NCBI GenBank assembly: GCA_027021365.1
Contig: JALUUM010000008.1
Span: 2,804-66,803, forward strand
DNA: 64,000 nt
Direction: 5' to 3'
DNA from: Spirochaetales bacterium
Lineage (GTDB): Bacteria > Spirochaetota > Spirochaetia > SZUA-6
A model generated the notes under the pieces. It was given only the letters and a program-made list of their open reading frames with translations, ran no database searches and was not told the DNA's origin. Both the position numbers and the translations under genes were made by a program. Numbering within the stretch: the first letter of the stretch is position 1; every line of letters starts with the position of its first letter. Positions 4,970-51,382 of this stretch are shown piece by piece.

Positions 4970-4971
4970 AT

Positions 4972-5766
4972 TTATTTCCTCTTAATAAAATCTATATCCG
5001 TTTCTTTGCACTTTCTCTTTGTCTGGTCAAAGGTTACAGGGGAATAGTAGGTGCCCGGGTCCTGATATATATCCAGGCCACGGCCAGGAATAATCCTCCA
5101 GCCTTTATCAGTTTCTATCGAACGGTCATGAAGCTTGTCATCGAACTCATATTTAAAATTTATGTTGAGCTCATCCAGGGCCTTTTTTAGCTCTTCAAGC
5201 TTGTGTATCTGTTTCTCTTTTTCTTCTTCTGTAGATTCGTGCCCTGTAACCAGAGTAACCTCTATTCTTTCTTCACCAGGTTTCTTATCCGGTAAGATAC
5301 TACAGAAGGCAACAAGATTTTTTATCTGGTACTCTTTTCTAATGTAGGCATCTCTTATAATAATTCTACACGCATCCTTAATGTATGGATAAAAGAGGTT
5401 CTTATAGGAGTATCCTGTTTCATTCTCACTAATTCTAATTGTCATCTCCTCCGGCTCCCTGTAAGGATCAAGTTTTCCCTCCAATGGTTTTTCAGGTTGG
5501 CTTTTAGGTCTTTCGCCGCTTTCTTCTAAGGTTTTCCCTTTTTCTGTTAAGTTGTCACCTGCTTTCCCTACTATCTCTTTTACCCTGCCTATTTTCCCAT
5601 CTTCAAGTTTAACCATTATCCCATACGGATGAAATTGAGCTTTTGTAAGTATCTCGCTAACCACTCCTTCGAAGGTATTGCCGCTTCTATAGTCTCCCTT
5701 TAAAGCAATTCTAACTTTAAGCCCAGGCGAGATGTTGTCTCTGTAATTGCCCCGATCGTCAGGCAT
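4972..5766 (-). CDS. YwbE/DUF2196-like N-terminal domain fused to an uncharacterised C-terminal domain (264 aa); first gene of the defence-like operon
   Basis: Residues ~15-65, KVRIALKGDYRSGNTFEGVVSEILTKAQFHPYGIMVKLEDGKIGRVKEI, match the small YwbE (TIGR03833-like) fold as I remember it. The C-terminal half contains HDRSIETDKGWRIIPGRGLDIY, reminiscent of an MIT_C / degenerate PLD-like fold; uncertain. Followed by an AT-rich promoter-like region at 5767-5876. Confidence 0.45.
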   Translation of the reverse strand: MPDDRGNYRDNISPGLKVRIALKGDYRSGNTFEGVVSEILTKAQFHPYGIMVKLEDGKIGRVKEIVGKAGDNLTEKGKTLEESGERPKSQPEKPLEGKLDPYREPEEMTIRISENETGYSYKNLFYPYIKDACRIIIRDAYIRKEYQIKNLVAFCSILPDKKPGEERIEVTLVTGHESTEEEKEKQIHKLEELKKALDELNINFKYEFDDKLHDRSIETDKGWRIIPGRGLDIYQDPGTYYSPVTFDQTKRKCKETDIDFIKRK

Positions 5767-13960: not shown

Positions 13961-14031
13961 AGCAGGAAGTTATAAAGCTCAAATTCAAGGCCCAATTCTA
14001 AGACCCCACAGGCCCCTTAAACAGGTTTTTC

Positions 14032-35744: not shown

Positions 35745-36326
35745 TTGAATTCAAAACATACTGAGCGGGACTATCGGAAGTTGAGTATCGGTAAGAATGT
35801 ATACAAACAAAAAATAGTGATGCTTGGCGATTTTGCAGTAGGTAAAACCAGCCTTGTAAACAGGTATGTTTACAATATCTTCAGTGAAAAGTATATAGCC
35901 ACTTTGGGAGTCAGAGTTTCGAAAAAAGACGTTACATTGACTTTAAACAATAAAACAATAAATGTAACCATTCTGCTTTGGGATATAAACAGTGAAGACA
36001 GGTTCCAGCGTGTCCTGCCCCAGTACATCATGGGGGCAAATGGCGCTGTTATTGTAGCCGATGTGACAAGACCTGAAACGATAGAGAATCTGAAACATCA
36101 CATTGAATATTTCCGTACATATGCCGGAGGTAAGGGGATCGTATTGAGCCTGAACAAGACAGACTTGATTAATTATGATCAATTTGGATTCCTTAAACAA
36201 AAAATGGAAAGAGATGCGATTTTTTCAAAAATGCAAACTTTTTTTACAAGTGCCAAAGAGAATCAAAACATAGAAGATCTTTTTATCAACCTTGCCCGCT
36301 TATCGATTGTTTCTAAGGAAGGGTGA
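35745..36326 (+). CDS. Ras-like small GTPase with a non-canonical G3 motif
   Basis: G1 GDFAVGKTSL, G2 Thr in YIATLG, G4 NKTD and G5 TSAKE are all present. G3 is WDINSED instead of WDTAGQE, so the DxxG glycine and catalytic Gln are absent. Confidence 0.7.
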   Translation: MNSKHTERDYRKLSIGKNVYKQKIVMLGDFAVGKTSLVNRYVYNIFSEKYIATLGVRVSKKDVTLTLNNKTINVTILLWDINSEDRFQRVLPQYIMGANGAVIVADVTRPETIENLKHHIEYFRTYAGGKGIVLSLNKTDLINYDQFGFLKQKMERDAIFSKMQTFFTSAKENQNIEDLFINLARLSIVSKEG

Positions 36327-36330
36327 ATCG

Positions 36331-37434
36331 ATGTCTGATATTGTTTACAATGCAATAAGAAAGAGAGTTAAAGTTTTTTTTGAATTCATAGATTCTGAGT
36401 TAATGATTCATCCAACGCAGAATGATTTCTGGGAATATCTTAATATTCGAATACCAGAAAATCCGGTTCCGTTAACAGACATAATTTTCGAATTGGTTGG
36501 AAAAGAAATAGAAATAACCCTGTTACTGAAGGGAGAAAAAAAATCTATAAACATACCGGCAATACAGAGGGAAACAGAAAAAGATAGGAATACTTATTTT
36601 GATCTTGAATTAATCACATGTGACAGGAGTGACTATCCGTTAATCGTTATAATAGAAGACAGGACTCGTATTTTTTCCTACCAACAAAAGCTGGTCCAGA
36701 GTCGCAATGAGACCAAACTTTTACAAAAACAATTAGCAGAAAAAAACAAGGCACTGGAAAAGCTAAATACAATAATTCAGAGACAGAACCTCGACCTTGA
36801 AAAACGGGTGAGAGAACGCACACAGGAACTCCAGAGTGCACGAATAGAGATAATAAGGCGCCTTGCTCAGGCGGCTGAATATCGGGATCCGGAAACAGGA
36901 AGTCACATTGTAAGAATGAGTAAAACATGTGTACTCCTTGCACGGGAAATAGGCCTCAGTGAAAAAGATTGTGACCTGATTTATCACGGTGGTTCGATGC
37001 ATGATCTGGGGAAAATTGCAATTCCCGATGCAATTCTATTGAAACCCGGACCTCTTTCTTCGAAAGAGTGGCAAATAATGAAACAACATACTATCAGAGG
37101 AGCTCGATTACTTTCCGATAATGATACGGATCTAATGATAACCGGCAGAATAATAGCCAGGTCTCACCATGAAAGATGGGATGGCAATGGATATCCGGAT
37201 GGAATATCCGGGGAAAACATACATATTTTTGCGAGAATATGTGCTCTTGCCGATGTTTTTGACGCCCTTGTGTCTGACAGGCCGTATAAGAAAGCCTGGC
37301 CATTTGAAAGAGCAATCTCTACAATCGAAGAAGGAAGCGGGACACAGTTTGATCCTGAAATCGTTAAAGCCTTCCTCGATATATCAGACAAGGCCATTAA
37401 ACTTCAGCAAGATTTTAAAGATAAATCAACTTAA
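36331..37434 (+). CDS. HD-GYP domain protein (putative c-di-GMP phosphodiesterase) with an N-terminal domain of unknown function
   Basis: C-terminal HD...HHERWDGNGYPDG matches the HD-GYP signature. ATG at 36331 has a GAAGGG RBS. The ORF-track start at 36292 overlaps the GTPase gene. Confidence 0.85.
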   Translation: MSDIVYNAIRKRVKVFFEFIDSELMIHPTQNDFWEYLNIRIPENPVPLTDIIFELVGKEIEITLLLKGEKKSINIPAIQRETEKDRNTYFDLELITCDRSDYPLIVIIEDRTRIFSYQQKLVQSRNETKLLQKQLAEKNKALEKLNTIIQRQNLDLEKRVRERTQELQSARIEIIRRLAQAAEYRDPETGSHIVRMSKTCVLLAREIGLSEKDCDLIYHGGSMHDLGKIAIPDAILLKPGPLSSKEWQIMKQHTIRGARLLSDNDTDLMITGRIIARSHHERWDGNGYPDGISGENIHIFARICALADVFDALVSDRPYKKAWPFERAISTIEEGSGTQFDPEIVKAFLDISDKAIKLQQDFKDKST

Positions 37435-37436
37435 AA

Positions 37437-38390
37437 ATGATGAGGACTTTATCATTCAAAGATAAAAAAACCATGCTCTCAATTCTTTCTCAACATCAAT
37501 TTCTTTTTGGTTTAGGAGCAATTACATACGACAGTAACACCAGAGAGCAAACAAGTGATTTACTAAGAGCAGTTGAAAATTCACAACTAAATTCCGGAAA
37601 TATATATTCTATAGTTTCCATAATCCGGCAGCATAGTCTAATATTCGGAGAAGGCCTTATTTCTTCGGATCAAAATGTAATATCGGAAGACAAAAAATTG
37701 ATTCAAAAATTATACAAGTTACTTCACAGCGAGGAGAAATATATTCCAACAATTATTCCCAGAGTTAACTACTTGAATTACAAAAGAAATCTTTCTAAAG
37801 AGATAGAAAAAAGAAAATTGATAAAAGAAAAACCAGATCCCGGAGGCTATCCTCTTTTCGGGAAAAAACGTATCGCCCTTAGAAAAATCAGCAAAGGATA
37901 CTTGATTCTTTTTAACCTTCCCAAAAACTACGAAAAACCCTCTATGATTTTTGTTCATATAATTTCAATCAAGCATAGCGAGAGCATTCATTATGAAAAT
38001 GAAAAAGTTGTCATTCTCACCAAGAACTATATTCATACTATCCTAATTTCAAATAAAGATATAAACGAAGAGTGTAAATACAAAAAAATATCTAGAACTG
38101 CATTCAATGTTCCTTTAAGCTCTAACAACCTTCTTGCTATAAGTACAAAAACCAATTTTAATATCTGCATTTCAGGCACGCCACACGATCCTGCTGCAAA
38201 TATACGATTGAAAAGCAATCCCTCTAACAATGAATATTCATACTTCTTTCCTGCTTCAAACAGCTCATTCCCCAAGATTGATCCTTTCTTAACCAATCTT
38301 ATAAAATATATTACAAAGATTTCTCAAAGAGAAGCTGACAATATCTCATATTTTATAACAAGAAAAATATTCCGGGAAAATCAGCTGTAA
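37437..38390 (+). CDS. hypothetical protein (317 aa), last gene of the chemosensory-like operon
   Basis: Starts 3 nt after the HD-GYP stop. AT-rich, with no recognisable motif. Confidence 0.4.
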   Translation: MMRTLSFKDKKTMLSILSQHQFLFGLGAITYDSNTREQTSDLLRAVENSQLNSGNIYSIVSIIRQHSLIFGEGLISSDQNVISEDKKLIQKLYKLLHSEEKYIPTIIPRVNYLNYKRNLSKEIEKRKLIKEKPDPGGYPLFGKKRIALRKISKGYLILFNLPKNYEKPSMIFVHIISIKHSESIHYENEKVVILTKNYIHTILISNKDINEECKYKKISRTAFNVPLSSNNLLAISTKTNFNICISGTPHDPAANIRLKSNPSNNEYSYFFPASNSSFPKIDPFLTNLIKYITKISQREADNISYFITRKIFRENQL

Positions 38391-40182: not shown

Positions 40183-40555
40183 CAGATGAGGACAGTAAGA
40201 CCCTGTAGGTCTACCTCCCGATGGTGAGTGATAAAATATCCGAAGGAGGTTGTATCTGTCGGGAGGGCAGGAATGAATACTTCCTATAGGGTTCCGGGAA
40301 TCAATAATAGATCATATTACTATAGCCAAAGTCCTAATTAATGGTTAAGAGTGAGGTATTGTAAGCTAAAAGGGTTGATATTCAAAGCTACAAGGTATTA
40401 TAATAGCAGCTAATATCATTTTAGTTTGGGTTATATGATACCGTTAGAGTTTTAAAACGCAAAATTATCTCACCTTGTTTGTCATATAAGCTCATTTCCT
40501 AACGGAATTTTTAACACCAGGCTGACTAATAATATTTAGAAAGGAGGTTATAAAA

Positions 40556-40714
40556 TTGAGTAAGAAAACAGCAAAAAAGAATGTAATAATCTTTGCTATT
40601 CTATTTTTTATTATTGGATTTTTTGTAGGTCAATTTTTGCATATGCCAGCTTTTGATAGATATAATTTGTTAGATGCAATGCGCAGACCAAGATCACATC
40701 ATATTAGGAGATAG
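40556..40714 (+). CDS. possible small single-TM protein (52 aa, TTG start)
   Basis: AGGAGG RBS 7 nt upstream of TTG. Encodes ...NVIIFAILFFIIGFFVGQFL..., ending 3 nt before the next gene. Confidence 0.25.
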   Translation: MSKKTAKKNVIIFAILFFIIGFFVGQFLHMPAFDRYNLLDAMRRPRSHHIRR

Positions 40715-40716
40715 CT

Positions 40717-41172
40717 ATGTATCGTCTTATTCTTTTATTTCTTGCAGGCATTCTTTTATTTGGATGTACCAACAACTATATCAGTAAAACAAAGAACTAC
40801 CTTATTGTGGACCAACCCTCCAATAAAGTAATAAGCGAATATGAGTATAACGAATCAGATAATACATTAAGAAGAACAATAAGCTATGGCAAAGATGGAA
40901 AAGTTAAAAAGATAATCAATTATGAATATGATAGAAGGGGTTATCTAATCAAAACGGTAGAGTCTGTTCCTCTCCAGGAGTCAAAAGAAATTACCTATTA
41001 TACTGAAGAGCATAAGGATAAAAGTGGGAGACTTGTAAAAACAATTCAAATTTCATCAGAAGGAAAAAAAATTGAAACCTATTACGGATACGATGAAGAG
41101 GGTAATTTAAGAGGAGTTGTGGAACAGGTAAATAACAAATCTGTGATTATGAAAGATTATCCGCATGAATAA
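40717..41172 (+). CDS. small lipoprotein with YD/RHS-like repeats
   Basis: Lipobox LLFGC. Repeats YEYDRRGYLIKT, YYTEEHKDKSGRLVKT and YYGYDEEGNLRGV match the YxYDxxGRL pattern. Confidence 0.55.
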   Translation: MYRLILLFLAGILLFGCTNNYISKTKNYLIVDQPSNKVISEYEYNESDNTLRRTISYGKDGKVKKIINYEYDRRGYLIKTVESVPLQESKEITYYTEEHKDKSGRLVKTIQISSEGKKIETYYGYDEEGNLRGVVEQVNNKSVIMKDYPHE

Positions 41173-42601
41173 AAAATATTTATTTCCAGCAATATTTCTT
41201 TTTGTCTTAGGGGTTACTCAGGGTTTATATGCCGATTCTCGTATTCCCTATTCTGAAGTAATACTGAATAAAAATGTAATAGACTTGCGTGCAAACATGC
41301 AGTTGAAGTCGTCGATTAATAACCGACCGGTAAGGTATTCAACCCCGGAAGATCTTAGAATAGGGTCGATCTTTTTAACTGCGGACAATGAGGCGAGAAA
41401 AGTTGTAAATATCTATGAAAGAAATGGTAAAACAGTCATAGAAACAGTTAAACCAAGACCAGAAGAGGTTTTTATAGATGCTTATGTCCCGGATTTTAAC
41501 GTTAAGCTCGACCGATCCGATATTGATTTGTCCTCTCTCGGGAAGGGAGTTACATTACTACCACCTGGAACCCCAGAAAAGGATATGCTTTTTTCAGGTT
41601 TTAATCAAACATCTACAACATTTAAAACCGAAAGTGTAAACTGGCTGGAAACAGACCCTGATAATGCGGGGCTCGATATAATAGCGCTTAATATAGATAC
41701 GCCTCTATTTAAGAGCTCTCTCTCCACAGATGATATGGAATTATTAGAGAAGATAAAAACCTCAGGGAAAAAGGCAAAGAAAAAAAAGGGAAAAACTACA
41801 GAAACAAGTGTAGGTGGCACACCCGAAGTTTCTTTCGGTACTTCCGGGGAGATTCATCTCCTTGGCACGTTACGTTTAAGAAAACCAACAATATCGGGCG
41901 GACTTAAAATGCCGAGTATCACTGTTACATGGGTTCATGACTGGTGGATAGTCTATCACCCTGAATTCCGTCATAACAAAGGCTATCTAAAAGCAAATTT
42001 CACGGCTGCTCAGCAATTTGATTTTCGGTTAACAGGAACTGTTAAACTGGAATCCGAAATAATAATTCCAATCTTTGAAATAATTGTAGAGGATCCTGAT
42101 ACTACTCTTTTCATGAAAGTGGGTTTTTACGCTAAAATAGGTCTTACGGGAACTATTTCGATTATAATCGAAGCATCTGAGTACACAAAACTTTCAGCCG
42201 GTGTAACATGCGACCTTGCATGGCCCTTTATTCCTTATAAGTATAGCGGGCATCAGAACAACTATGGAAACTTTGCTTTTCGACCAATTCTTGCAGCACA
42301 GGCAAGGCTCCAGGCCGGTCTTTATTTGGGTGGTAGTTTTGGTATGGCTTCTATTGACTTTGCAGGGGTGGAAGCCGGAGGAGGAGGTTATATACAGGCT
42401 GAGGGCTACATGGAACCTATGGGTATTATGGGCTACGATACAGAGCTTGGTGGCTACGGCAATTTTGACAATTGGATACTCGATCTCACTGCAGAGGCAG
42501 GTGCATATGTGGAGGTAGGAGCAAGTATTCTTACCATAGGAATACCAATATATTCACATGACTGGCCCTTCTGGGAATGGAACCAGAGCTGGGAGTTATA
42601 G
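41165..42601 (+). CDS. secreted protein with a Gly/aromatic-rich C-terminal region (possible beta-barrel)
   Basis: Signal peptide MNKKYLFPAIFLFVLGVTQGLYA; 478 aa; no family recognised. Confidence 0.45.
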   Translation: MNKKYLFPAIFLFVLGVTQGLYADSRIPYSEVILNKNVIDLRANMQLKSSINNRPVRYSTPEDLRIGSIFLTADNEARKVVNIYERNGKTVIETVKPRPEEVFIDAYVPDFNVKLDRSDIDLSSLGKGVTLLPPGTPEKDMLFSGFNQTSTTFKTESVNWLETDPDNAGLDIIALNIDTPLFKSSLSTDDMELLEKIKTSGKKAKKKKGKTTETSVGGTPEVSFGTSGEIHLLGTLRLRKPTISGGLKMPSITVTWVHDWWIVYHPEFRHNKGYLKANFTAAQQFDFRLTGTVKLESEIIIPIFEIIVEDPDTTLFMKVGFYAKIGLTGTISIIIEASEYTKLSAGVTCDLAWPFIPYKYSGHQNNYGNFAFRPILAAQARLQAGLYLGGSFGMASIDFAGVEAGGGGYIQAEGYMEPMGIMGYDTELGGYGNFDNWILDLTAEAGAYVEVGASILTIGIPIYSHDWPFWEWNQSWEL

Positions 42602-42604
42602 CAA

Positions 42605-43888
42605 ATGAAATTGATTAAATGTTTATTAATAAGCATTACTGCTTTTCCATTTCTGCTATTAGCAAACTGCAATCTTTTGAACTTATCCGGCAACAATATG
42701 GAAACAGAAAAAATCAATTACTATTCAAAAGAAGTTGAAGTAAGCAGATATGTAGATCCGGGTGAATCTGACCTGGAACCTGTAGAGAGCTATATCTACG
42801 ATGATACCGGTAAACTGAGTGCTGTATTTATTAACCTCTATGAGGATGTTAATGGAGATGGATATTACTTAAACACCAGAACCAATATCTATCAGGTAGA
42901 TGAAAACGGCAATAAAACTCTTATTCAATACTATAAATATACATATAGGAAGGATATCTATGAATATTTAGACGATGAAGGTATTACACAATCCGATTTT
43001 GTTTATGAGCTTCTTACAGGAGAAGTCTGGAGTACCAATAATACTCCGGATGATGAAACGGATGATATAAAAGAACACTATTATATTGTTACATATACGA
43101 CGAATGATGACACGATCTATGAAGATTATCTATCAATAATAGATTATGATAAAGATAATAATATTACCAATCGGCAAGATGATACTTATCAAGTAGATGG
43201 GGATGGCAATCGAAGATATAGAACGGAAAAATTCTATAGCTTAAGTGATCCGGCTGATCCTAATACGCTTTCCCTCTCATCTGAATATGCCGCATGGTTA
43301 GATACTTCTGCTCCCTATGACATACTCTATGAACTCTACCATTCTGTGCGAAGCAGTAATGGCACTGACGAATTTTATTTCTATACGAAATATGAAAGAA
43401 ACGACTCAGGAGATATTTACCAGCAAACAGATTATGTATACGACGATCCCTCTATGCCAAAATTGAATAATGGTGATTACCAAGACGGATCATTGGATGA
43501 CAGTGGACCTTATACCATCAGTTTTGACGCTATCGGTAAAATGGCCACAGTATTACAATCGGAATATGACAGTAAAGGAAATGTAATAAAAGATGAGCGA
43601 TTCTTAGATGGACAGCTAAAAGAATACACAATTTATAGGTACAATGAATCTTCCGAATTAATAGATAAAATTAGATATACAAATGGTGGGAGCTTTATCC
43701 ACGACCGTACTTCCATAAGGTATCATGATGAAATCCGTGACGGAGTTTATAATCGTATAAAAGAAACATTCATTTATAAGTACTATGATTATGAAAGTAC
43801 CGGAGAAGGTCAAAAGGTTATTAGGGAACTTAATAATAACGATTCAAACTGCCGCTTAAAAAAACCAGAAAATAACCATATTCATTAA
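42605..43888 (+). CDS. lipoprotein with YD/RHS-like repeats (427 aa)
   Basis: Lipobox LLANC. Repeats YIYDDTGKLSAV, YVYDDPSMPK and EYDSKGNVIKDERF. Confidence 0.5.
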   Translation: MKLIKCLLISITAFPFLLLANCNLLNLSGNNMETEKINYYSKEVEVSRYVDPGESDLEPVESYIYDDTGKLSAVFINLYEDVNGDGYYLNTRTNIYQVDENGNKTLIQYYKYTYRKDIYEYLDDEGITQSDFVYELLTGEVWSTNNTPDDETDDIKEHYYIVTYTTNDDTIYEDYLSIIDYDKDNNITNRQDDTYQVDGDGNRRYRTEKFYSLSDPADPNTLSLSSEYAAWLDTSAPYDILYELYHSVRSSNGTDEFYFYTKYERNDSGDIYQQTDYVYDDPSMPKLNNGDYQDGSLDDSGPYTISFDAIGKMATVLQSEYDSKGNVIKDERFLDGQLKEYTIYRYNESSELIDKIRYTNGGSFIHDRTSIRYHDEIRDGVYNRIKETFIYKYYDYESTGEGQKVIRELNNNDSNCRLKKPENNHIH

Positions 43889-43900
43889 GGTTGACAGCAT

Positions 43901-45595
43901 ATGAAAGGGGAAAAAAGTATGAAGAGGGTAATTATAACTTTAAGCATTTTATTTTTTTTAAGTATATCTGTTTATTCAAAAGGAAATACAGAATCCGGAA
44001 GAAATTTTCTATTTAAGGATATAAAGAATGCTTATCTATACCCGGAAATTTCCTATTCAAATAATCCGGTAGTTTTGAATAGATTAAACAAAGCTTTAAT
44101 TTACAATAATACAAATTTTGCTTTAAATATAGATACAGTTCAGAACACACGTACAGATGATTCCATTGGTTCCAAAGGGGGAACGGGTACTGTTACTGGT
44201 ATAGATTTAAAACCCGTGGCCGATCTCATCTCTTTTTTCCCATTCAAAAAATCTGTTGTTGGTTTTGGTGCCAACTATAGTATGGATTATAGCAGAAATG
44301 ACATTTTGTTCAGCAATTATAATGCACCAACGGAAAATAAAACGGAAATTACTGAAAACGATAAAATCGAAACAGGGGGTGATTTATACCTTGCTCTTAA
44401 AAACACGGGCAGTTTTAACCTTGGCTTTTCTGCCGGTTATAGCTTCATGGAGATTCCAAAAAGCTTTAGCTGGATAACAGATAGTTCGGTGAATCCTGCA
44501 CTTCATTATGTGGATCCTGCGGCTTATCCCAATCCTATTGATAGCATTACTCATACGGCAAAAGCTTCCATAGGAATCGAATTCCCTCTTTTGGAAACAG
44601 ACATTCTATTAAGTGTAAACTATGTTGGAGATTTCACCAAACGTTCGGATGATTTTATTGCAGTTGATACAGATGGAGACGGATATAAAGAGACATTGAT
44701 GTCTTATAAGGATTATATGTCGCGAACGGGAGAGGGAGGGCCTCCTGAAACTGCAACTAGCTATAATCATGAAGATAATACGATCTCAACAAGGATAGAT
44801 ATTTATCCTGTAATAAAAAAAGAACTTGGTGAAAATGTAACTTTCATTCTTAGTGGGAAATACAGAGCAGTAGATTACAGAGTAAACAACTATAAAAAAC
44901 AGATTACAACAGCATCAATTTTAAAAGATGAAAGCTGGACAAAGAAAATATATGATTCCGGCCTGACAACTTTCGATGCTTTAGCAGCTCTTTCTTTTAA
45001 AAACCCGAAAAACAAAAATGAATTTAGGTTTGGAATAGGCTATTCAAGAGTGAATGAAATCTATTCTCAGGACGGTGACTCTGCAGAAGGAAACAGCCTG
45101 TATAGCAGCTTAAATACCAATAATTATACAGAGCTTAGTCTTGGAGACAATCCTGAAAATGACAGCATTGTTAATAATGATGTTTATCCTTCAAATACCT
45201 TAACTCAGAAACTGCTCCTGATAGCCGGATATCAATGGTCTCTGCTAAAGCAGGTTTCTTTATATATAAATATGGATATTACAGGTTCGATTGTGACAAA
45301 AACATACGATGCCTTTAACCTGGATACACGTACCGTATGGGAAGAAAGCCATACATCTTCTACTTTAATATGGGATATGGATCCTCTTATCGGGATTGCT
45401 TTTCCTATTGGTAAGAAGGTTATGTGCATTATAAATATGCACAGGCTTAATACAAAAGGTGATATTTCAATAAGCGATGAAACTGCACCATACGATATCA
45501 TCTTGGGAAGGGCTTCCAGTAACAGTAATAGCGATCTGTTTTCCGACAGCGGATATAGTTTTGAAATTAATCTAGGATTTATTATCACATGGTGA
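43901..45595 (+). CDS. putative outer-membrane beta-barrel protein
   Basis: Signal peptide. C-terminus ...SFEINLGFIITW has the alternating-hydrophobic, terminal-aromatic OMP signature. Confidence 0.55.
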   Translation: MKGEKSMKRVIITLSILFFLSISVYSKGNTESGRNFLFKDIKNAYLYPEISYSNNPVVLNRLNKALIYNNTNFALNIDTVQNTRTDDSIGSKGGTGTVTGIDLKPVADLISFFPFKKSVVGFGANYSMDYSRNDILFSNYNAPTENKTEITENDKIETGGDLYLALKNTGSFNLGFSAGYSFMEIPKSFSWITDSSVNPALHYVDPAAYPNPIDSITHTAKASIGIEFPLLETDILLSVNYVGDFTKRSDDFIAVDTDGDGYKETLMSYKDYMSRTGEGGPPETATSYNHEDNTISTRIDIYPVIKKELGENVTFILSGKYRAVDYRVNNYKKQITTASILKDESWTKKIYDSGLTTFDALAALSFKNPKNKNEFRFGIGYSRVNEIYSQDGDSAEGNSLYSSLNTNNYTELSLGDNPENDSIVNNDVYPSNTLTQKLLLIAGYQWSLLKQVSLYINMDITGSIVTKTYDAFNLDTRTVWEESHTSSTLIWDMDPLIGIAFPIGKKVMCIINMHRLNTKGDISISDETAPYDIILGRASSNSNSDLFSDSGYSFEINLGFIITW

Positions 45596-46347
45596 AAATA
45601 GTAAAAGAGAAAAAAACCGCATTACAAATTCTTATAATGATTACAGCAATTATCTATTCTATTTGGGTACTTCTCTATCTAGCAAGTTTCTTTTTATATT
45701 CTGATTTTTTTAACAAATTGCATGCTAGTCTTTATGTTTCAATCGGATTTACTGTAATTGGTGTAGTATCTGTGTCAATTACAGCAACCATGATAGTTAA
45801 GCTCAAGCGAGATCCCTTTGCAATTTTTTCTGTTTTTATAATAGGTGGAAGACTTATCAATTTTATTGCAGCTTACCTTTTCTCTAAATTAACAAAGAAT
45901 TCATTTTTTATGCTTCCCTTCGGCAACCCTGATTTTTTTATCTTCTATTTTCTTTTAATAGGTTCTTATACCTTTATACGTAAGTCTGTTCTCCCAGAAA
46001 AAAAGTATGGTTTTCAAGCTCTATCCCTCTTTTCCTTGTTGTTTCTCGCATCCCCTATATTTTTCCATGTAATAGGAAAAGAAATAACTGTTATTTCAGT
46101 TTATTCCATTTTTTATACTCTCATTCCTATAGCGGCTATACTGGTAGCACCTTATAATACAAATCTTAGGAGCTTAAGGTTAATAATAATTTCTGTAATT
46201 ACTGCTGCATTCTTTGATATGCTTATTTATCTTAAGTTTACAGAATGGGATATTCCTCCTGATCTAAATTACCTTCTGCTTCCCTATTCCTTGCTAATTC
46301 TGACTGCCAGTGTAATACGTAGAGAAGAGGAGATTGCTAATGGTTGA
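45589..46347 (+). CDS. polytopic membrane protein (about 7 TM), hypothetical
   Basis: Hydrophobic helices throughout; overlaps both neighbouring genes. Confidence 0.5.
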   Translation: MVKIVKEKKTALQILIMITAIIYSIWVLLYLASFFLYSDFFNKLHASLYVSIGFTVIGVVSVSITATMIVKLKRDPFAIFSVFIIGGRLINFIAAYLFSKLTKNSFFMLPFGNPDFFIFYFLLIGSYTFIRKSVLPEKKYGFQALSLFSLLFLASPIFFHVIGKEITVISVYSIFYTLIPIAAILVAPYNTNLRSLRLIIISVITAAFFDMLIYLKFTEWDIPPDLNYLLLPYSLLILTASVIRREEEIANG

Positions 46348-47032
46348 GGCCGTGTATTTTGGAACATTAATCCCCCTTCTTTTTCTCGTTGTAGTGATAC
46401 ACGGGGAATATCGTAAGCTGATACTGTTCTTTGTATGGGGTTTAACTTCTGCAATTATTATTTATCTAATCAATACTCTGATAGACATATACATTGTACC
46501 GGATGAAACACTTCTTTTAACACAGATAATACCACTAATGGAAGAATTTTTAAAAATATTCCCGATCTTTTTCTTGATAAGGAAGAAAGGAAAGGTATAT
46601 CGGTACAATATCATACGTTTTGCAATGGCATCGGGAATAGGCTTTTCTATATTGGAAAACTATCTTTATCTTTCTATCTCTGCTTTTCCAGGAGTGAGAG
46701 GAAGCATTGTTTTTATAATCACCAGAAGTTTAACAGCCAGTCTACTTCATGGTTCAACTACAGCTTTAATCGGTTATGCAGTTCAGATAATGCATAATTA
46801 CAATTTCTTCTCATTTTTTCTTTTACTAGGTATATATCTTTTGGCAGTCTCAATACATTCAACCTATAATCTATTAGGATTAACAAAAGGATTGCAAGTT
46901 GCGGCAATTCTAATTCCAATTGTCCTTTTTATGTTAGAATATTATCTGTTCAATTTTTTTGGTCGGAAAGGTGTTCGACAAAACAGTTTGAGTATTCCTG
47001 TAAAGTCGGAAATTAAAGGCGGTATTAAATGA
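46334..47032 (+). CDS. PrsW-family intramembrane protease-like protein
   Basis: EEFLK (EExxK), GIGFSILENYLY (GFxxxEN) and LLHGSTTALIG motifs within a polytopic membrane protein. Confidence 0.55.
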   Translation: MLMVEAVYFGTLIPLLFLVVVIHGEYRKLILFFVWGLTSAIIIYLINTLIDIYIVPDETLLLTQIIPLMEEFLKIFPIFFLIRKKGKVYRYNIIRFAMASGIGFSILENYLYLSISAFPGVRGSIVFIITRSLTASLLHGSTTALIGYAVQIMHNYNFFSFFLLLGIYLLAVSIHSTYNLLGLTKGLQVAAILIPIVLFMLEYYLFNFFGRKGVRQNSLSIPVKSEIKGGIK

Positions 47033-48864
47033 GCGAGGATTATTATTTTAAAAAAATATTTTATTTGCTCACGGTAGTAATGGGAGCCGTATTATCACTA
47101 TCACTTTCCGGGTGTAAAGAATTGAGTATTGGCATAGAAAAGGTAGAACAGGGTAATATTGTTTTTGTAGATTTTATTAATGCAACGAAAATACGAGGCG
47201 GAAATGAAGGTTTGATAGATTTCGGAGGAAAAACTATCGGAATGGGTGAGAAAGACGTGCAGATTTTAAGAATAAAGAATTCAGGTGCCGGGAATCTTGC
47301 AATTAATAATATGTTTTTTAGAGGGGAAATGTTTAATTTTGTGGAAGGTATCAATCCTGATTTTCCAATTACTATTCCCCCCGGTAAAACTATTGATATT
47401 TATTTAGAGTTCAATCCCCAAAAAGGGGGGGAGGAAAAAGGCCAGTTTTTTATTGACACAGGATCTGCTATCCATGACTTTGATCTTGTCGGCATCGGGC
47501 TGTGGGTGCTTACAATATCGATCCCGAATACCGGAGCTGATAGTAATTGTACAATTGAATCTCCAGGTACAATCAATCCCGGTGAAACAAAAGTTTTTAC
47601 ATCCGAGACAGGTGTTTTTACGCTTAAATGTGTTCCGGACATGCTTTACGAGTTCGTTCAGTGGACAATAGATGGCACTCCGGATGCTTCGCCTGTATTT
47701 GAAAATGTAAATGCAAAAGAAACCACAGTTGTTTTATACAGTCATACTTCGATACACGCTACGATAAACAGTCCTTTCGTTAGGGTGCCGGATGACGAGG
47801 CAAATATCAATACCGCAATATCGACTGCAAGCAGTGCAGGACAATCAGTAGTAATAAGAGCCGGTACTTATGATGTTAACTATGACATAAACCTGCTTCC
47901 CGGAGTACCTGTTTATGGGGGATACAATACCACAGGTACACCCTGGACAGAGAGAAACTACAAAACAGCAGCAGACAGAACAGATTCAACCTACGCAACA
48001 ATTATAAACTTTACTGATACCACATCAAACATAAAATCCGGTGCAGGAATTAACAATGACGTAGTATTCGAAGGGTTTACTGTTCAGCGAAGTTCTGGAA
48101 GCAGCACCCCTCTTATCTCTTTAACTTCTGATACAAAAACTGTTGTCCGATACAATACACTTTTAGGAAATGGCGCCGGTGCCGCTGTAGAATTCAATGG
48201 AGCTTCCGCTTTAATCTCGGATAATGTGATAACAGGCGGAACAGGAGCTGCAGTTTATATTACCAACTATTCTTCTCCCCGTGTTGAAAACAATACCATA
48301 ACAGGCGGAACTAATTCCACCGATTATGAGCTTACTTATGGAATTAAAATATCAGAAAACAGCAACCCTGTAATCTATAAGAATACTGTCTCCGGAGGGA
48401 CTTCCTCCGGGACAGGGGGTCAGGCATACGGGATATCTGCAGATTTTGAATGCGAGCCAGAAATAATTGGCAATACAATAAGTGGCGGTTCAGCAACGGG
48501 GAATGACAGCAAAACGTATGGGATTTATTTGATCAACAATGGGAATGGGACAATCGGATACAACGATATCAACGGAAGCAATGGAAAATCTATGGCCTTC
48601 GCTGTATACGTTGCCTACGGCGGAAATCTCTATCTTGACTACAACAATATTTACACGACAGGCGGTTCTGACAGATACGGTATTTATATTGCTCAGGGGG
48701 GAAGAGTAAGGAGATTACTAAATAATGGGATGTACGATGCTTCTACAGCTCTGGTATTCGATTTTTTTAACGGGTCTTTTGATACGATAGATGATGTAAA
48801 TAACTATTTTCGTACCGACACAAATCTGGGTTATAGAATTGATATAACAATCCCTGTTTATTAA
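47029..48864 (+). CDS. lipoprotein with right-handed parallel beta-helix (pectate-lyase-like PbH1) repeats
   Basis: Lipobox LSLSGC. Many repeats of the type NNxITGGTxxA / VSGGTSSG / ISGGSATG. Confidence 0.6.
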   Translation: MSEDYYFKKIFYLLTVVMGAVLSLSLSGCKELSIGIEKVEQGNIVFVDFINATKIRGGNEGLIDFGGKTIGMGEKDVQILRIKNSGAGNLAINNMFFRGEMFNFVEGINPDFPITIPPGKTIDIYLEFNPQKGGEEKGQFFIDTGSAIHDFDLVGIGLWVLTISIPNTGADSNCTIESPGTINPGETKVFTSETGVFTLKCVPDMLYEFVQWTIDGTPDASPVFENVNAKETTVVLYSHTSIHATINSPFVRVPDDEANINTAISTASSAGQSVVIRAGTYDVNYDINLLPGVPVYGGYNTTGTPWTERNYKTAADRTDSTYATIINFTDTTSNIKSGAGINNDVVFEGFTVQRSSGSSTPLISLTSDTKTVVRYNTLLGNGAGAAVEFNGASALISDNVITGGTGAAVYITNYSSPRVENNTITGGTNSTDYELTYGIKISENSNPVIYKNTVSGGTSSGTGGQAYGISADFECEPEIIGNTISGGSATGNDSKTYGIYLINNGNGTIGYNDINGSNGKSMAFAVYVAYGGNLYLDYNNIYTTGGSDRYGIYIAQGGRVRRLLNNGMYDASTALVFDFFNGSFDTIDDVNNYFRTDTNLGYRIDITIPVY

Positions 48865-48895
48865 TGTGTATTAAGAAAATTATGAAGGTAAATAG

Positions 48896-49903
48896 ATGAA
48901 GAATAAAAAAAATAAAAAACTCCTTTATATATCTTTATTTTCAGCAATTATCATTCTTATCTTAAGTGGATGCCCGAATACTTCTTTCAACGGCCCAATC
49001 CTGGATGGGCCGAGAAATATAATAATTGATGTCGATAACAGGGTTTTTAATTCCCAGGATGCAGCAAATGAGTGGGAAAAAGGCCTTGGGCTGGATAAGA
49101 TTACTTTTACAGTAAATCTTGAAGGTGGGAGTGGGAATGTGGAACAGGAGATGCTGCCTACAGATATAGATTCAACTTATAATTTTACCCAAGTTTCCAT
49201 ACCTATTGAGGGTAAACTCTTAAGCATAAATGCAGTGGGATCTCATGGTACAGATACATTTACTGCCATGATTAATGATGAAAGCATATTTGATGATTAT
49301 GCCGGGTGGGAAGTTTTTGCAAATGTTCTTAAATTTAAGCTCGGTTTTCAGATCAGCGATGATATAGCAAATTCATATTTAGCGTTTTCTATTTGTCCAC
49401 GTGGCGGAAATTCTGTTGTACTTAAATACGACTCGGGTGTTACGGCACCTGCAGATCAACAAACAGATTGGGGAGGCACAGCCCTGTCAAGTAAGCAGAT
49501 TGCCATTGAACCGGTTTTTAATGAGAATCCAACAGGGTTAACATTTGACGTTTATACGCTTGTTGTGGATAAAAACTTGCGTGATCTCTATTTCGGACCA
49601 TTAAACCCGGATAAAGACGGCGGCTACTACCAACACCACCCGTGGAAAGAGATTTGGGAGTACAATGAAATCACCAAGACAGGATTGCAGATTGGTAATA
49701 AAATTTATAGGTTAAAGAAGTACAATACAGATCCGTTATCTGCTGTAGAACCTATGGGGGATGGAGTTGGATATAACTCTTATCTCATCGATCTGACAGC
49801 AGAAACGACAGACCCTGTGGGTAAGTATCTATTAATTGCACTTATCCTAACTTATGAAGGACTTTCTATACCAACAAAGACTGATATTATAGAAATAAAA
49901 TAA
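48896..49903 (+). CDS. lipoprotein, hypothetical (335 aa)
   Basis: Lipobox ILILSGC; no recognised domain. Confidence 0.5.
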   Translation: MKNKKNKKLLYISLFSAIIILILSGCPNTSFNGPILDGPRNIIIDVDNRVFNSQDAANEWEKGLGLDKITFTVNLEGGSGNVEQEMLPTDIDSTYNFTQVSIPIEGKLLSINAVGSHGTDTFTAMINDESIFDDYAGWEVFANVLKFKLGFQISDDIANSYLAFSICPRGGNSVVLKYDSGVTAPADQQTDWGGTALSSKQIAIEPVFNENPTGLTFDVYTLVVDKNLRDLYFGPLNPDKDGGYYQHHPWKEIWEYNEITKTGLQIGNKIYRLKKYNTDPLSAVEPMGDGVGYNSYLIDLTAETTDPVGKYLLIALILTYEGLSIPTKTDIIEIK

Positions 49904-50389
49904 ATAAACTTGTCTGATTCATTGTTACTTGCCAGCTATAGATTCTAATTCTTTGCAAATTAGCCAAAGTTTATTACAATAATCCGCCCAAGAATGTTTC
50001 CTGATACCCTTCCATTCCTGCCAAACACCGTAAGTATGGTGTCTCTTTTATTTGCTCTACCACTTCCTCGTCACTTAATCCTAATTTCTCCTTTATGATC
50101 AATGCTCCCAATGCCATCCGAAATGGCTTGGCAGGTGTCCCCGTAAGATTCTTTTCTGTACATTCTCCTCTACCTGGTGCAAGGTTTTTTTACCATTTTT
50201 CCCCATTTTCCTTGCACTTCAGGGTTAATATTTGTCATATATCTCTTTATCTTGTAAAGCATTGTTGCTTTTTCAGGAAACCCTAGTTAGATTTGAAATG
50301 ACACATCTCTTCTTCGGATCAGATTTCCGATGATTCAACGATAACTCTTTCCTTTAAAGATTGTTTAAATTATCATATAGAAAGCAATC

Positions 50390-51382
50390 ATGAAACGTAG
50401 CATTATCCTGCCAGCTTTCATACTGTCTTACGTCCTCTTCTTAACAATAAACTTCCAGTTAAACGGAGAAGTCCTCGCACCACCCCCCGTTTCAACCTTT
50501 CCCGAAGTACCGGGAACCGGGTTTTTCCCATCGGTAGCAGCCTGGACATATGTAAACCATTACTTTCCAGAATACAGCGACCCGTATCACAACTGGAAAT
50601 ACGAGATTGGAAGCTTTTTCACCTTCTACAGCATGGACTTTGGTAAAAGCCCACCTTCACCTGCAGACGGGAAAAATACTCCAATGACACTGGGAATAGG
50701 CGGTACAGGCAGAGCCATCATAAGGACCCGACTTGCAGAGGATAAGGGACAGTGGTTCTTCTGGCCATATATAATTGTAAACGACCTTAAACTTGTAAGC
50801 TTTTTAAAAGCAGATTTTGCCACATTCAGTCTCTACTTCAGGCACGACTGTAAGCATGACCTGGACACTTCCAGGGTAAGACTGATAATTCATGACATCT
50901 TAGGGGCAGAAATCCGAACATCAACGGCAAGGCTATTCTGGGGAAACTCGCCCGGCAGGATAAGGGCAAAACCCATCCAAGACAAAAGACTTTCCAGCGG
51001 TATTTCAGGCAATCTCATGGCAGAATACACTGTAAGACCGGTCTTCCAGGAGTATCCCAGAGAGATAGACGACTTCACCCTTGCAGGCTCCATGGAACTG
51101 GAGCTCCTTAGAATCCCCAATACGGTTACTATCTTTGCAGAGGGAAGAATTGCAGGAATACTTCGCGAGAGGAACGTGTCCACAGGGGAAAGAGGCTGGG
51201 ATACGGACTGGCTTTTGAGGCTCGGTGTAAGACTACCGACCGCTATAAAAGGCTTTACAATTTACCTGGAAAGGGAACATTTAACCGACGACTGGGTATC
51301 ACAGGGAAGGCAGCCCGTAGACCTCTTTTCCTTCGGACTTGCTGCCAAAATAGAAGCATTTAGCAAAAAAACAGGCCAATAA
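50390..51382 (+). CDS. secreted hypothetical protein (330 aa)
   Basis: Signal-peptide-like N-terminus; aromatic-rich. Confidence 0.45.
   Translation: MKRSIILPAFILSYVLFLTINFQLNGEVLAPPPVSTFPEVPGTGFFPSVAAWTYVNHYFPEYSDPYHNWKYEIGSFFTFYSMDFGKSPPSPADGKNTPMTLGIGGTGRAIIRTRLAEDKGQWFFWPYIIVNDLKLVSFLKADFATFSLYFRHDCKHDLDTSRVRLIIHDILGAEIRTSTARLFWGNSPGRIRAKPIQDKRLSSGISGNLMAEYTVRPVFQEYPREIDDFTLAGSMELELLRIPNTVTIFAEGRIAGILRERNVSTGERGWDTDWLLRLGVRLPTAIKGFTIYLEREHLTDDWVSQGRQPVDLFSFGLAAKIEAFSKKTGQ

Follow-up and report, generated by a model that had tools for sequence, protein, structure and literature searches.

Envelope gene cassette in a Spirochaetales genome

A stretch of 64,000 nucleotides from a Spirochaetales bacterium (contig JALUUM010000008.1; hereafter, the window) contains a block of adjacent genes predicted to encode envelope proteins. 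The locus raises two questions: whether these genes constitute a functional unit, and what such a unit might do. The initial annotation, made from the window sequence alone, described nine co-directional genes that overlap or are closely spaced. Indeed, nine tightly packed ORFs occupy positions 40556-49903 of the + strand, with spacings of -14 to +31 nt. They encode four lipoproteins, an outer-membrane barrel, a secreted β-rich protein, a 52-residue and an eight-helix membrane protein, and a PrsW-type protease:

40375-40404, +: candidate operon promoter, TTGATA-18-TATAAT (11/12, a consensus match only), ~150 nt 5' of A
40556-40714, +: A, 52-aa single-pass micro-protein with a TTG start
40717-41172, +: B, 151-aa lipoprotein with YD/RHS-type β-hairpin repeats
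41165-42601, +: C, 478-aa secreted protein, the signature of the cassette
42605-43888, +: D, 427-aa Tyr/Asp-rich lipoprotein
43901-45595, +: E, 564-aa predicted outer-membrane β-barrel
45589-46347, +: F, 252-aa polytopic membrane protein
46334 (TTG, ORF list) or 46340 (ATG) to 47032, +: G, PrsW-family protease by sequence, 230 aa from the ATG
47029-48864, +: H, 611-aa lipoprotein with an Ig domain and a β-helix
48896-49903, +: I, 335-aa lipoprotein
50025-50042, +: candidate operon end, a terminator-like hairpin ACACCGTAAGTATGGTGT with a T-rich run behind it (a consensus match only), 120 nt 3' of I

From A to I, the gaps are 2, -8, 3, 12, -7, -14, -4 and 31 nt; that between F and G becomes -8 instead of -14 if G starts at ATG 46340. 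Because the genes overlap or almost touch, with one good promoter-like site 5' and one terminator-like hairpin 3' of them, the single transcript proposed initially is plausible. Neither class of site is enriched in the region (42 promoter-like sites versus 38.9 expected in shuffles; 7 terminator-like sites versus 6.7). No upstream element common to the cassette loci that were compared was seen, and no Rfam match was obtained. The GC content of the cassette (0.364) is close to that of the 20 kb upstream (0.363) and below that of the downstream flank (0.466). Therefore, the block, which had been called AT-rich relative to its flanks, is AT-rich against one flank only.

Conservation in Spirochaetota

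The gene order A-B-C-D-E-F-G-H-I was found again in ~10 distinct Spirochaetota metagenome lineages, and the flanking genes are unrelated in every cassette locus. All nine genes occur in this order in the window and in loci L001, L004, L006 (= L010), L007 (= L020) and L011. One lineage (L003 (= L014) and L013) has only A to H and is missing I; in L012, A to H are seen on a contig that ends inside H. Because the same order is found in ~10 lineages with unrelated flanks, the cassette is a conserved unit and not a product of chance proximity. The co-conservation on which the initial annotation had made its proposal depend is thus present.

All cassette loci come from metagenome-assembled genomes of Spirochaetota, and they are found in 8 of 185,579 species representatives. 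C, E and F have relatives in 21, 15 and 10 protein clusters, respectively, of a database holding 5.8 billion proteins, and those of the 21 close relatives of C that are named are all from Spirochaetes. The cassette appears to be specific to a subset of Spirochaetota and matches no described system. All of its hosts are uncultured.

A second type of locus (n = 3: L008 (= L016), L025 and L026) has the order B-C-D-E-H-I, without A, F and G, and its D protein ends ~40 residues early. In the alignment, the corresponding C-terminal extension of D, which carries a basic His/Asn tail, is found only in cassettes having A, F and G. The tree of C places the type-2 clade as sister to L004, which retains A, F and G. 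Therefore, A, F, G and the D extension were lost jointly from a nine-gene ancestor and, because type-2 loci lack all four, they appear to behave as one module. This loss is a single evolutionary event and thus has small statistical weight. The idea that surface lipoproteins are matured by a co-encoded protease nevertheless draws some indirect support from it, in that the clade lacking protease G also lacks A, F and the D extension.

Inner-membrane proteins A, F and G

G matches the Pfam PrsW-protease family (PF13367) with E = 1.6e-21 (77 bits versus a cut-off of 23.5). The motifs EExxK, FSILEN, H139 and HSxYN are preserved in all six orthologues (42-66% identity), in which E70, E71, K74, F104, E108, N109, H139, H175 and N179 are invariant. 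Judged by its sequence, G is a glutamic-type intramembrane protease of the PrsW family with all catalytic motifs intact, as annotated initially. Because of the Pfam match and the invariance of all motif residues, it is probably active. Public collections record the 230-aa form.

F always lies directly 5' of G and is lost along with it. It has ~8 hydrophobic segments (hydropathy gives 5-8 across orthologues) and invariant residues Y23, A94, L109-P110-F111, P156, D210 and E247. F had been taken for a divergent PrsW paralogue. This assignment is not supported, as comparison of F with G gives a BLASTP E-value of 0.49 and an hhalign probability of 0.2%.

The TTG start of A is preceded by a ribosome-binding site, AAAGGAGG. 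A consists of a basic N-terminus, one hydrophobic segment (residues 10-28) forming a predicted transmembrane helix with GFxxGQ, and a conserved tail of ~24 residues, PAFDDYNLLDAMRRPGSxxHRR. It matches no family, and it is kept in at least nine loci at 35-63% identity, with G21, F22, G25, Q26, P31, R44, P45, R51 and R52 invariant; A is a real conserved gene. The basic N-terminus predicts an N-in topology with the tail outside, as in known PrsW substrates, and the invariant helix-breaking residues G21, G25, Q26 and P31 sit at the outer end of the helix. A is a candidate substrate or precursor for G.

Outer-membrane and secreted proteins

The lipobox cysteine is invariant among orthologues of all four proposed lipoproteins (C17 in B, C22 in D, C29 in H and C26 in I). 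Products C, D, E, F and I have no Pfam, NCBIfam or PDB family match; for D, this holds in each of 13 orthologues.

Two of the lipoproteins, B and D, were initially reported to carry YD repeats. By profile comparison, those in B are genuine: RHS_repeat matches all 13 orthologues (best E = 3.2e-7), and the B profile matches the solved Rhs, TccC and YenC proteins (best E = 2.2e-7). The window copy itself scores above the cut-off for DUF2963 (E = 1e-5) and below it for RHS_repeat (19.1 bits versus 22). Some B orthologues are weakly matched by DUF4595 (7/13) and DUF3836 (4/13), small lipoprotein families of Bacteroidota to which B is closer than to the YD-repeat shells of Rhs proteins, Tc-toxin BC components and teneurins. 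With ~5-6 hairpins in 151 aa and a lipid anchor, B is too small to form a closed shell, as had been noted, and it lacks an RHS core, an autoprotease and a toxin domain. D is rich in Tyr (11%) and Asp (11.5%) and lacks a detectable YD profile. Its YD-like character is limited to one BLASTP match (E = 1e-4) and a few YxYD-like strings, and a comparison of B and D profiles aligned signal peptides only.

C, previously described as a secreted Gly-rich protein, has a signal-peptidase-I-type signal peptide, a conserved N-terminal domain (~30-185), a charged variable linker and a Gly-rich, all-β C-terminal domain (~215-478) with very long strands. Gly makes up 12.5% of the C-terminal domain and 22.5% of residues 380-450. 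In an AlphaFold2 model (pLDDT 74, overall pTM 0.53), strands of 20-39 residues are joined via tight turns; this fold has no significant match in PDB or BFVD. A full HMM search with C retrieved 125 clusters. Because the C-like module of remote relatives is followed by lectin, LRR or fn3 domains, C may be an extracellular module.

E has a signal-peptidase-I-type signal peptide, ~16-18 predicted strands, a loop of the DxDxDG type (AVDTDGDGY) and the C-terminal β-signal GFIITW noted in its initial assignment as an outer-membrane protein. Its AlphaFold2 model, a confidently predicted barrel (pLDDT 78, pTM 0.75), gives 206 Foldseek matches in PDB at E <= 1e-3, all of them outer-membrane barrels (best E = 1.1e-8) and including FadL, TodX, TonB-dependent receptors and BcsC, with TM-scores of only ~0.3-0.4. 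E is therefore predicted to be an outer-membrane barrel, and the 15 clusters are its only relatives.

H, described initially as a β-helix lipoprotein, matches Beta_helix (E = 5.5e-14), NosD (E = 1.9e-6), HYDIN Ig (E = 0.0017), choice_anch_D (E = 1.2e-4) and FAP74 (E = 4.7e-5). It has an ASH/HYDIN-type Ig domain (~60-150), a second β domain and a right-handed parallel β-helix (~345-490 or beyond). G28 is invariant along with the lipobox cysteine, and a search of H for a catalytic signature found none.

The B-C-D core

In a Rectinemataceae locus (L028), B (hhalign 97.6%), C (HMM E = 1.8e-33) and D (hhalign 94.7%, E = 5.6e-8) each have a remote homologue, without E or H, and B-C-D appears to be the older core of the cassette. 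In L028, the three genes are preceded by a 52-aa ORF with a canonical double-glycine leader (ELSAEELDKVSGG|GMPQPKHHAQKP), and this set lies directly 3' of NHLP-type export genes encoding HlyD, a C39-peptidase ABC transporter and a second ABC transporter. By this arrangement, a peptide precursor and a processing machine fill the position of A, F and G in the window, a parallel to the small precursor and protease found there. The window differs in that it has no double-glycine leader, C39 domain or ABC transporter, its protease is of a different class (PrsW) and A is membrane-anchored. No match was found when A was compared with the L028 peptide by hhalign. The A tail, the D tail and the L028 core peptide share a basic character, Pro and His-His, a likeness that is not significant in Smith-Waterman comparisons with shuffles (p < 0.05 in 2 of 10 loci, median p 0.2). 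The L028 peptide could belong to the adjacent exporter and be unrelated to B-C-D.

A two-layer model

Our preferred explanation, to which we assign a probability of only about 40%, is that the cassette encodes an outer-membrane or periplasmic lipoprotein-barrel complex together with a dispensable inner-membrane maturation module. The structural layer would be centered on the ancient triad of B, C and D, located at the outer membrane or in the periplasm, to which E, H and I would have been added in this lineage, with H the likely ligand-binding or enzymatic subunit. These six proteins presumably exit the cytoplasm via Sec, and their assembly at the outer membrane is an assumption of the model. 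A, F and G would form the maturation layer. The most likely substrate of G would be the co-encoded type-II micro-protein A, whose conserved periplasmic tail could be clipped off or trimmed in the manner of RsiW site-1 cleavage by PrsW. The clade-specific extension of D is perhaps also trimmed by G, and F would be an obligate partner. The freed peptide or processed tail might then act on the B-C-D complex.

Functional-amyloid operons include those for curli (Csg) and for Pseudomonas Fap, the latter with a C39-type protease (FapD) and a barrel (FapF). Their organization is reminiscent of the cassette, in that a Gly-rich β protein destined for secretion is encoded with an outer-membrane channel, accessory factors and a protease. 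However, C lacks imperfect amyloid repeats, and no similarity in sequence or fold was found between Csg or Fap proteins and those of the cassette.

Alternative explanations

The cassette might instead specify a surface complex that captures or takes up glycans or other polymers. H would bind or cleave an extracellular polysaccharide and E would serve as the uptake channel, with B, C, D and I as accessory binding proteins and the PrsW protease confined to quality control. The Beta_helix and NosD matches of H fit this reading, as parallel β-helix (PbH1) domains typically occur in polysaccharide lyases and hydrolases. Also, the best structural matches of E are substrate channels, and fusions to discoidin (F5/8 type C), ConA-like and Flg_new domains are seen among remote homologues of C. 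A large barrel encoded with several lipoproteins, one of which (H) has binding-type domains, resembles SusCD and other complexes in which a TonB-dependent receptor has a lipoprotein lid. However, E lacks a plug, a TonB box and any signature of the SusC/FadL families, its TM-scores to channels are low, and none of the lipoproteins is related to SusD or proteins like it. Neither in the cassette nor conserved beside it was there a glycoside hydrolase or lyase family, an inner-membrane transporter or a regulator. Moreover, the B-C-D triad can occur without any barrel gene or H, and A, F and G are left unexplained. We regard polymer uptake as rather unlikely.

C could also be a toxin of the β-pore-forming type within a secreted, bacteriocin-like weapon, with the lipoproteins and barrel serving export and self-protection and a small peptide (A, or the double-glycine peptide of L028) acting as co-factor or bacteriocin. 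The long strands and tight turns of the C model fit such a role, as do its top PDB matches, pore-state pleurotolysin and MACPF hairpins, which are not significant (best E = 0.013, TM 0.17). Target-binding-type domains (lectins, BspA-type LRRs) occur on remote C homologues, and the L028 cassette adjoins a bacteriocin exporter of the NHLP type. Several observations make this role doubtful. The cassette contains no known toxin or immunity family, PADLOC matches none, and C shows strong conservation (mean column identity 55%) and not diversification. A search for relatives in viral contigs or plasmids found none, and thus nothing indicates that phages or plasmids carry the cassette.

The one function for which PrsW has been characterized is to cleave anti-sigma factors, RsiW among them (Zhang et al. 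2012, PMC3482391). Site-1 cleavage of A by G might therefore start regulated intramembrane proteolysis that controls the neighboring envelope genes in response to stress. G belongs to the same family as the protease of the Bacillus subtilis sigma-W pathway, and A, encoded in the same operon, has the single-pass, N-in, C-out topology of anti-sigma substrates. However, the ~9 cytoplasmic residues of A are too few to accommodate an anti-sigma domain, and none of the loci has a sigma factor, site-2 protease or transcription factor, either within the cassette or conserved beside it. The cassette protease also differs in its setting among outer-membrane and lipoprotein genes and in its constant association with the unrelated eight-helix protein F. 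In addition, one clade without A, F and G retains the other genes. A signaling role is, in our judgment, quite improbable.

Zhang et al. (2012, PMC3482391) list architectures in which PrsW is combined with RHS-tethered toxins and include spirochaetes among the lineages with the PrsW system. Release of such a toxin could be imagined here, where an operon encodes both a protein with YD/RHS repeats and a PrsW protease. The gene and protein architecture largely refutes this scenario, which we consider very improbable: in those systems PrsW is N-terminally fused to the toxin, whereas G stands alone at 230 aa, and B has its own lipoprotein signal, a conserved rather than polymorphic C-terminus (GYDExGxLRGVVE...MKDY), and no autoproteolytic motif or C-terminal toxin domain. 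The cassette also has no immunity gene.

That the nine are unrelated neighbors merely resembling an operon has a chance close to nil and is rejected by synteny: five of the nine products lack a recognizable family, so functional linkage is unreadable from annotation, but the genes overlap or almost abut, and their order and content are conserved among lineages whose C proteins are only 39-58% identical and whose flanks differ completely.

A conserved nine-gene cassette in uncultured Spirochaetota

Nine co-directional ORFs, termed A to I, occupy positions 40556-49903 of the window, all on the + strand.

Cassette genes and candidate flanking signals
40375-40404: promoter-like site, TTGATA-18-TATAAT, 11/12 consensus (candidate)
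40556-40714, +: gene A, 52 aa, putative membrane-anchored micro-protein
40717-41172, +: gene B, 151 aa, predicted lipoprotein
41165-42601, +: gene C, 478 aa, signal-peptide protein
42605-43888, +: gene D, 427 aa, predicted lipoprotein
43901-45595, +: gene E, 564 aa, predicted outer-membrane barrel
45589-46347, +: gene F, 252 aa, hydrophobic protein
46334 or 46340-47032, +: gene G, 232 or 230 aa, PrsW-family protein
47029-48864, +: gene H, 611 aa, predicted lipoprotein
48896-49903, +: gene I, 335 aa, predicted lipoprotein
50025-50042: terminator-like hairpin (candidate)

The intergenic gaps from A to I are, in order, 2, -8, 3, 12, -7, -14 (or -8), -4 and 31 nt. Gene A starts with a TTG codon preceded by AAAGGAGG, and public gene calls record G as the 230-aa form that begins at ATG 46340. 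Because neither promoter-like nor terminator-like sites are commoner than in shuffled sequences, both are listed only as candidates.

Searches with C, E and F among 5.8 billion proteins recovered 21, 15 and 10 clusters, respectively, and all the named matches belong to Spirochaetes MAGs. A scan covering 185,579 species representatives produced eight loci, all in Spirochaetota MAGs, and a metagenome scan added eight further short contigs; the hosts are uncultured throughout. With orthologues assigned by HMMs at all loci, the full order A-B-C-D-E-F-G-H-I is found in the window and in loci L001, L004, L006 (=L010), L007 (=L020) and L011. L003 (=L014) and L013 lack I alone, and in L012, L015 and L021 the cassette runs past the contig end. 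The flanking genes are wholly different from locus to locus. The same order in different surroundings therefore marks a conserved cassette, and the alternative of unrelated neighbours, which the initial annotation named as a refuting condition, does not hold. We place the probability of a conserved envelope cassette with the protein classes described below at roughly 0.9.

The cassette as a whole corresponds to no described system, and the kinds of component are known (PrsW, outer-membrane barrel, lipoproteins, beta-helix, YD repeats). A literature search on PrsW in spirochaetes and on comparable gene neighbourhoods yielded nothing relevant besides a survey of polymorphic toxins. By sequence search, C, D, E, F and I, five of the nine products, are without relatives in Pfam, NCBIfam or the PDB, and would represent new protein families. 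How spirochaetes build their outer membrane and display surface lipoproteins is poorly understood, and a conserved operon of a dedicated barrel and four lipoproteins offers a tractable entry to the biology of this envelope.

At L001:18532-20175 and L006:10526-12181, which represent two separate lineages, I is followed at most 8 nt later on the same strand by a gene of about 550 aa. Its product is a secreted Peptidase_C11 (clostripain-like) protein with Flg_new_2, and the gene may be a tenth, optional member of the cassette. It is absent from the window.

Predicted lipoproteins and outer-membrane barrel

Genes B, D, H and I encode lipoboxes (LFGC, LANC, LSGC and LSGC, respectively) in which the cysteine is invariant in all orthologue alignments. 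Together with the signal peptides, this predicts four lipoproteins, in agreement with the initial annotation. That annotation also assigned YD repeats to two of them, and at the profile level the assignment stands for B and fails for D. All 13 B orthologues match RHS_repeat (best E = 3.2e-7), the window copy scoring 19.1 bits, under the cut-off of 22, and the B profile matches solved Rhs, TccC and YenC proteins in the PDB (best E = 2.2e-7). None of 13 D orthologues matches any Pfam repeat family, and a PDB profile search with D returned nothing at E<=10. D is Tyr/Asp-rich; its sole link to B is one BLASTP match (E = 1e-4), and hhalign of the two aligns the signal peptide alone. B shares its repeats with RHS/YD proteins but differs from them in having no shell-length array, no RHS core with autoproteolytic motif and no variable C-terminal toxin domain. 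At 151 aa, and with an NCBIfam RHS_core score of 14 bits against a cut-off of 2000, it is indeed too small for a shell and lacks a toxin domain, as had been remarked. Its C terminus is conserved.

H combines an ASH/HYDIN-type Ig domain with a right-handed parallel beta-helix (PbH1). It scores 52.5 bits against Beta_helix (threshold 25.9) and 27.9 against NosD (23.6), and matches no catalytic family. Thus, the beta-helix lipoprotein recognized earlier is confirmed.

E, first noted as an outer-membrane protein ending in GFIITW, is predicted to be an outer-membrane beta-barrel with a signal peptide and a beta-signal. Its model has about 18 strands (pLDDT 78, pTM 0.75), and orthologues end in ...GFIITW, ...FTAAW, ...MVFSF and similar sequences typical of beta-signals. 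Foldseek gave 206 PDB matches at E<=1e-3, every one an outer-membrane barrel, but with TM-scores of about 0.3-0.4; the matches therefore establish the class of fold but not the family. Sequence searches found no family for E. Membership of the FadL/TodX family, judged by a family profile match, a 14-strand barrel and an N-terminal hatch, was rejected: no Pfam match occurs in 15 orthologues, TM-scores are 0.29-0.43, and E is about 140 residues longer than FadL.

A loop in E, AVDTDGDGY (44660-44690, residues about 253-262), is a candidate calcium-binding motif of the DxDxDG, thrombospondin-type-3-like kind. Fifteen orthologues all share D256, D260 and G261, and two of them give weak TSP3_bac matches.

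A surface-protein module represented by C

The model of C (pLDDT 74) starts with a small beta domain at the N terminus, followed by a helix, a charged linker and an all-beta C-terminal domain in which strands of 20-39 residues are joined by tight turns. Fold comparison with the PDB and BFVD gave nothing significant; pore-state pleurotolysin and MACPF hairpins came closest (E = 0.013, TM 0.17). The sole Pfam hint is OMP_b-brl (E = 0.026).

A full HMM search with C recovered 125 clusters, of which 32 reach E<=1e-30. Remote homologues of 600-1200 aa (P0073, P0109, P0114, P0124 and P0125) carry the C-like module in fusions, with F5/8 type C (discoidin) and Flg_new, fn3, ConA-like lectin or BspA-type LRR domains as partners. 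Extra domains around the module argue that C is extracellular or surface-located and not a terminal membrane barrel. A classical C-terminal outer-membrane barrel or autotransporter is doubtful, since in these relatives further domains follow the module and no barrel match is significant. These fusions suggest that the C-like module is an undescribed surface-protein module distributed more widely than the cassette.

PrsW protease, its membrane partner and a micro-protein

The expected PrsW-family protease is G. It matches Pfam PF13367 with 77.2 bits (cut-off 23.5, E = 1.6e-21) over profile positions 4-193 of 196, and has four to seven clear hydrophobic segments. The motifs EExxK/R, FxxxE(N), H and HxxxN/D correspond to E70, E71, K74; F104, E108, N109; H139; and H175, N179. 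All nine residues are invariant in six orthologues of 42-66% identity. By these sequence criteria, G is a bona fide PrsW family intramembrane protease. It is a stand-alone protein of 230 aa in the window and in five of six aligned copies.

At L004:15153-17655 the reading frame of the PrsW gene continues into the beginning of H, taking in the lipobox of H itself, and the product has 443 aa; the remainder of H is a separate 282-aa ORF. A true G-H fusion was rejected because H is split there and the read-through contains its lipobox; a frameshift, assembly error or pseudogene is the probable cause.

F, previously described as a divergent paralogue of the protease, is not one by comparison with G (BLASTP E = 0.49, hhalign probability 0.2%). 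It has about eight hydrophobic segments and a few invariant residues, an LPF motif among them, and six orthologues gave no Pfam or PDB match.

Judging by its conservation, A is a real gene. Nine orthologues of 35-63% identity share an invariant GFxxGQ...P...RP...RR pattern, and the protein has about nine cytoplasmic residues. On a UBA9216 Spirochaeta contig (L015:5589-5666), A is in frame only over its C-terminal half (MRIPAVDDYNLLDAMKRPRSASHRR). The break is probably an assembly frameshift, so A is taken to be present there even though no full ORF was called.

Variant cassettes

Three loci of one clade (L008 =L016, L025 and L026) have the order B-C-D-E-H-I, termed type 2. They lack A, F and G, as well as any small ORF upstream of B. 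In these loci D ends about 40 residues early, without the variable linker and basic His/Asn tail of all other D proteins; the extension is missing exactly where A, F and G are missing. In a neighbour-joining tree of C, the type 2 clade groups as the sister of L004, where A, F and G are retained. Therefore, A, F, G and D's extension were lost jointly from a nine-gene ancestor. This joint loss, a single event, marks them as one dispensable module.

In the window, the D extension lies at the C terminus (43770-43888) and ends in KKPENNHIH; tails elsewhere include YRKISNHHYR and YKKVSHQHIR. The tail of A (40640-40714), MRRPRSHHIRR, is loosely similar. A matrix built from A tails placed D tails in the top roughly 10% of 430 ORF C termini, with mostly negative scores. 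A C-terminal sorting tag shared by A and D was rejected (shuffle test, median p = 0.2, not significant), and the likeness is therefore treated as compositional only.

A more remote variant is present in a Rectinemataceae MAG.

Remote cassette variant
L028:3270-12378, contig Ga0307376_10000017: NHLP-type HlyD, C39-peptidase ABC transporter, second ABC transporter, promoter-like site, 52-aa ORF, B, C, D

The transport proteins score above the cut-offs of the NHLM_micro_HlyD, ABC1 and ABC2 models, and the cassette homologues are clear (B, hhalign 97.6%; C, HMM E = 1.8e-33; D, hhalign 94.7%). The barrel, PrsW, F, H and I are absent. The 52-aa ORF has a textbook double-glycine leader, ELSAEELDKVSGG, and a 12-residue core, GMPQPKHHAQKP. 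The window contains neither such a precursor nor a C39-ABC exporter; both occur only in L028. A second remote contig, L027, has B-C-D too. Retention of B-C-D in both indicates an ancient core, to which E, H and I were added in particular lineages. The first cassette position holds either a membrane-anchored micro-protein, accompanied by PrsW and F, or a GG-leader peptide, accompanied by a C39 exporter. The A tail, the D tail and the L028 core are alike in being basic and having Pro and His-His, but not to a statistically significant degree, and no homology of A with the GG-leader peptide was found.

Possible functions

The best-supported reading has two parts, an envelope complex and an optional maturation module. 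B, C, D, E, H and I would form an outer-membrane-associated complex of lipoproteins and barrel. In an optional inner-membrane module, G, acting with F, would cut the periplasmic tail of A, and G may also cut the C-terminal extension of D. PrsW proteases can cut extracytoplasmic regions of single-pass proteins. This activity points to a maturation module, as do the joint loss of A, F, G and the D extension, the analogous position of the GG-leader peptide with its exporter, and the substrate-like topology of A, whose TM helix carries helix-breaking residues towards its outer end. Such cleavage is also treated by Zhang et al. 2012 (PMC3482391). We regard the processing mechanism as tentative, at somewhat less than even odds.

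A bolder, and unlikely, extension would make the B-C-D triad a machine of an undescribed kind, extracellular or periplasmic, under the control of a short exported peptide. The peptide would come from A, cut by PrsW with its 8-TM partner F, in cassettes of the window type, and from a double-glycine precursor cut by the C39 ABC exporter in Rectinemataceae.

On this extension, C would found a new and widespread surface-protein module, with frequent fusions to lectin or LRR domains, and might form rings or pores, in view of the long hairpins in its model. PrsW proteases would gain a second, sigma-independent role in peptide release or lipoprotein-tail processing. As rival functions for the cassette, capture or uptake of glycans by a complex is improbable, and a weapon of the pore-forming or bacteriocin-like kind is quite unlikely.

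PrsW proteases are very widespread and, to our knowledge, cleavage of anti-sigma factors is essentially their sole characterized role. Stress signalling of this sigma type is very unlikely here: in contrast to the PrsW/RsiW pathway, no sigma or anti-sigma domain and no S2P is found in the cassette or conserved beside it, and A has only about nine cytoplasmic residues. The cassette is thus a genetically delimited PrsW case without a sigma factor, with A and D's tail as candidate substrates and F as obligate partner. Together, these features make further PrsW substrates directly testable by co-expression.

In PrsW-dependent toxin systems, the PrsW domain is N-terminal to the toxin, with or without an RHS linker, and an immunity gene is adjacent (Zhang et al. 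2012, PMC3482391). G in the window, in contrast, stands alone, and no fusion, toxin domain or immunity gene was found; we give a polymorphic RHS toxin almost no credence. A search with PADLOC likewise gave no match for a defence system or toxin. Chance neighbours, refuted by synteny, are the least credible reading of all.

Upstream region, base composition and flanking genes

The 370-nt gap upstream of the cassette gave no Rfam match to a riboswitch or leader RNA (gathering threshold or E<=1), and comparison of upstream DNA across ten loci revealed no conserved element. The GC content of the cassette is 0.364, compared with 0.363 for the 20 kb upstream, 0.466 for the downstream flank and 0.402 for the whole window. 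Therefore, the block is AT-rich relative to its downstream flank only, and not relative to both flanks as originally described. A horizontally acquired or specifically AT-rich island gained no support, given this similarity to the upstream DNA and the ordinary chromosomal genes on either side: upstream, a CheA-like kinase, a Ras-like GTPase, an HD-domain (HD_5) protein and an OmpA-family protein, and downstream, MscS, PTS EIIA and an Na/H exchanger. No relative was found in viral contigs or plasmids.

GC content is very uneven along the window, from 0.28-0.32 in the first 5 kb (1-5000), which contain a minus-strand ORF of 1129 aa (1580-4969), to about 0.52 at 14-17 kb (14000-17000). Low GC also prevails from 20 to 50 kb, a stretch far longer than the cassette. 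Two nearby ORFs without a Pfam family, at 37437-38390 (317 aa, GC 0.32) and at 50390-51382 (330 aa, signal peptide, GC 0.47), are not kept beside the cassette in other loci. The region 35745-37434 includes a small Ras/Roc-type GTPase (193 aa, Ras E = 1e-27), with the CheA-like Hpt/HATPase kinase upstream and the HD_5 protein directly downstream; this group is a signalling cluster unrelated to the cassette.
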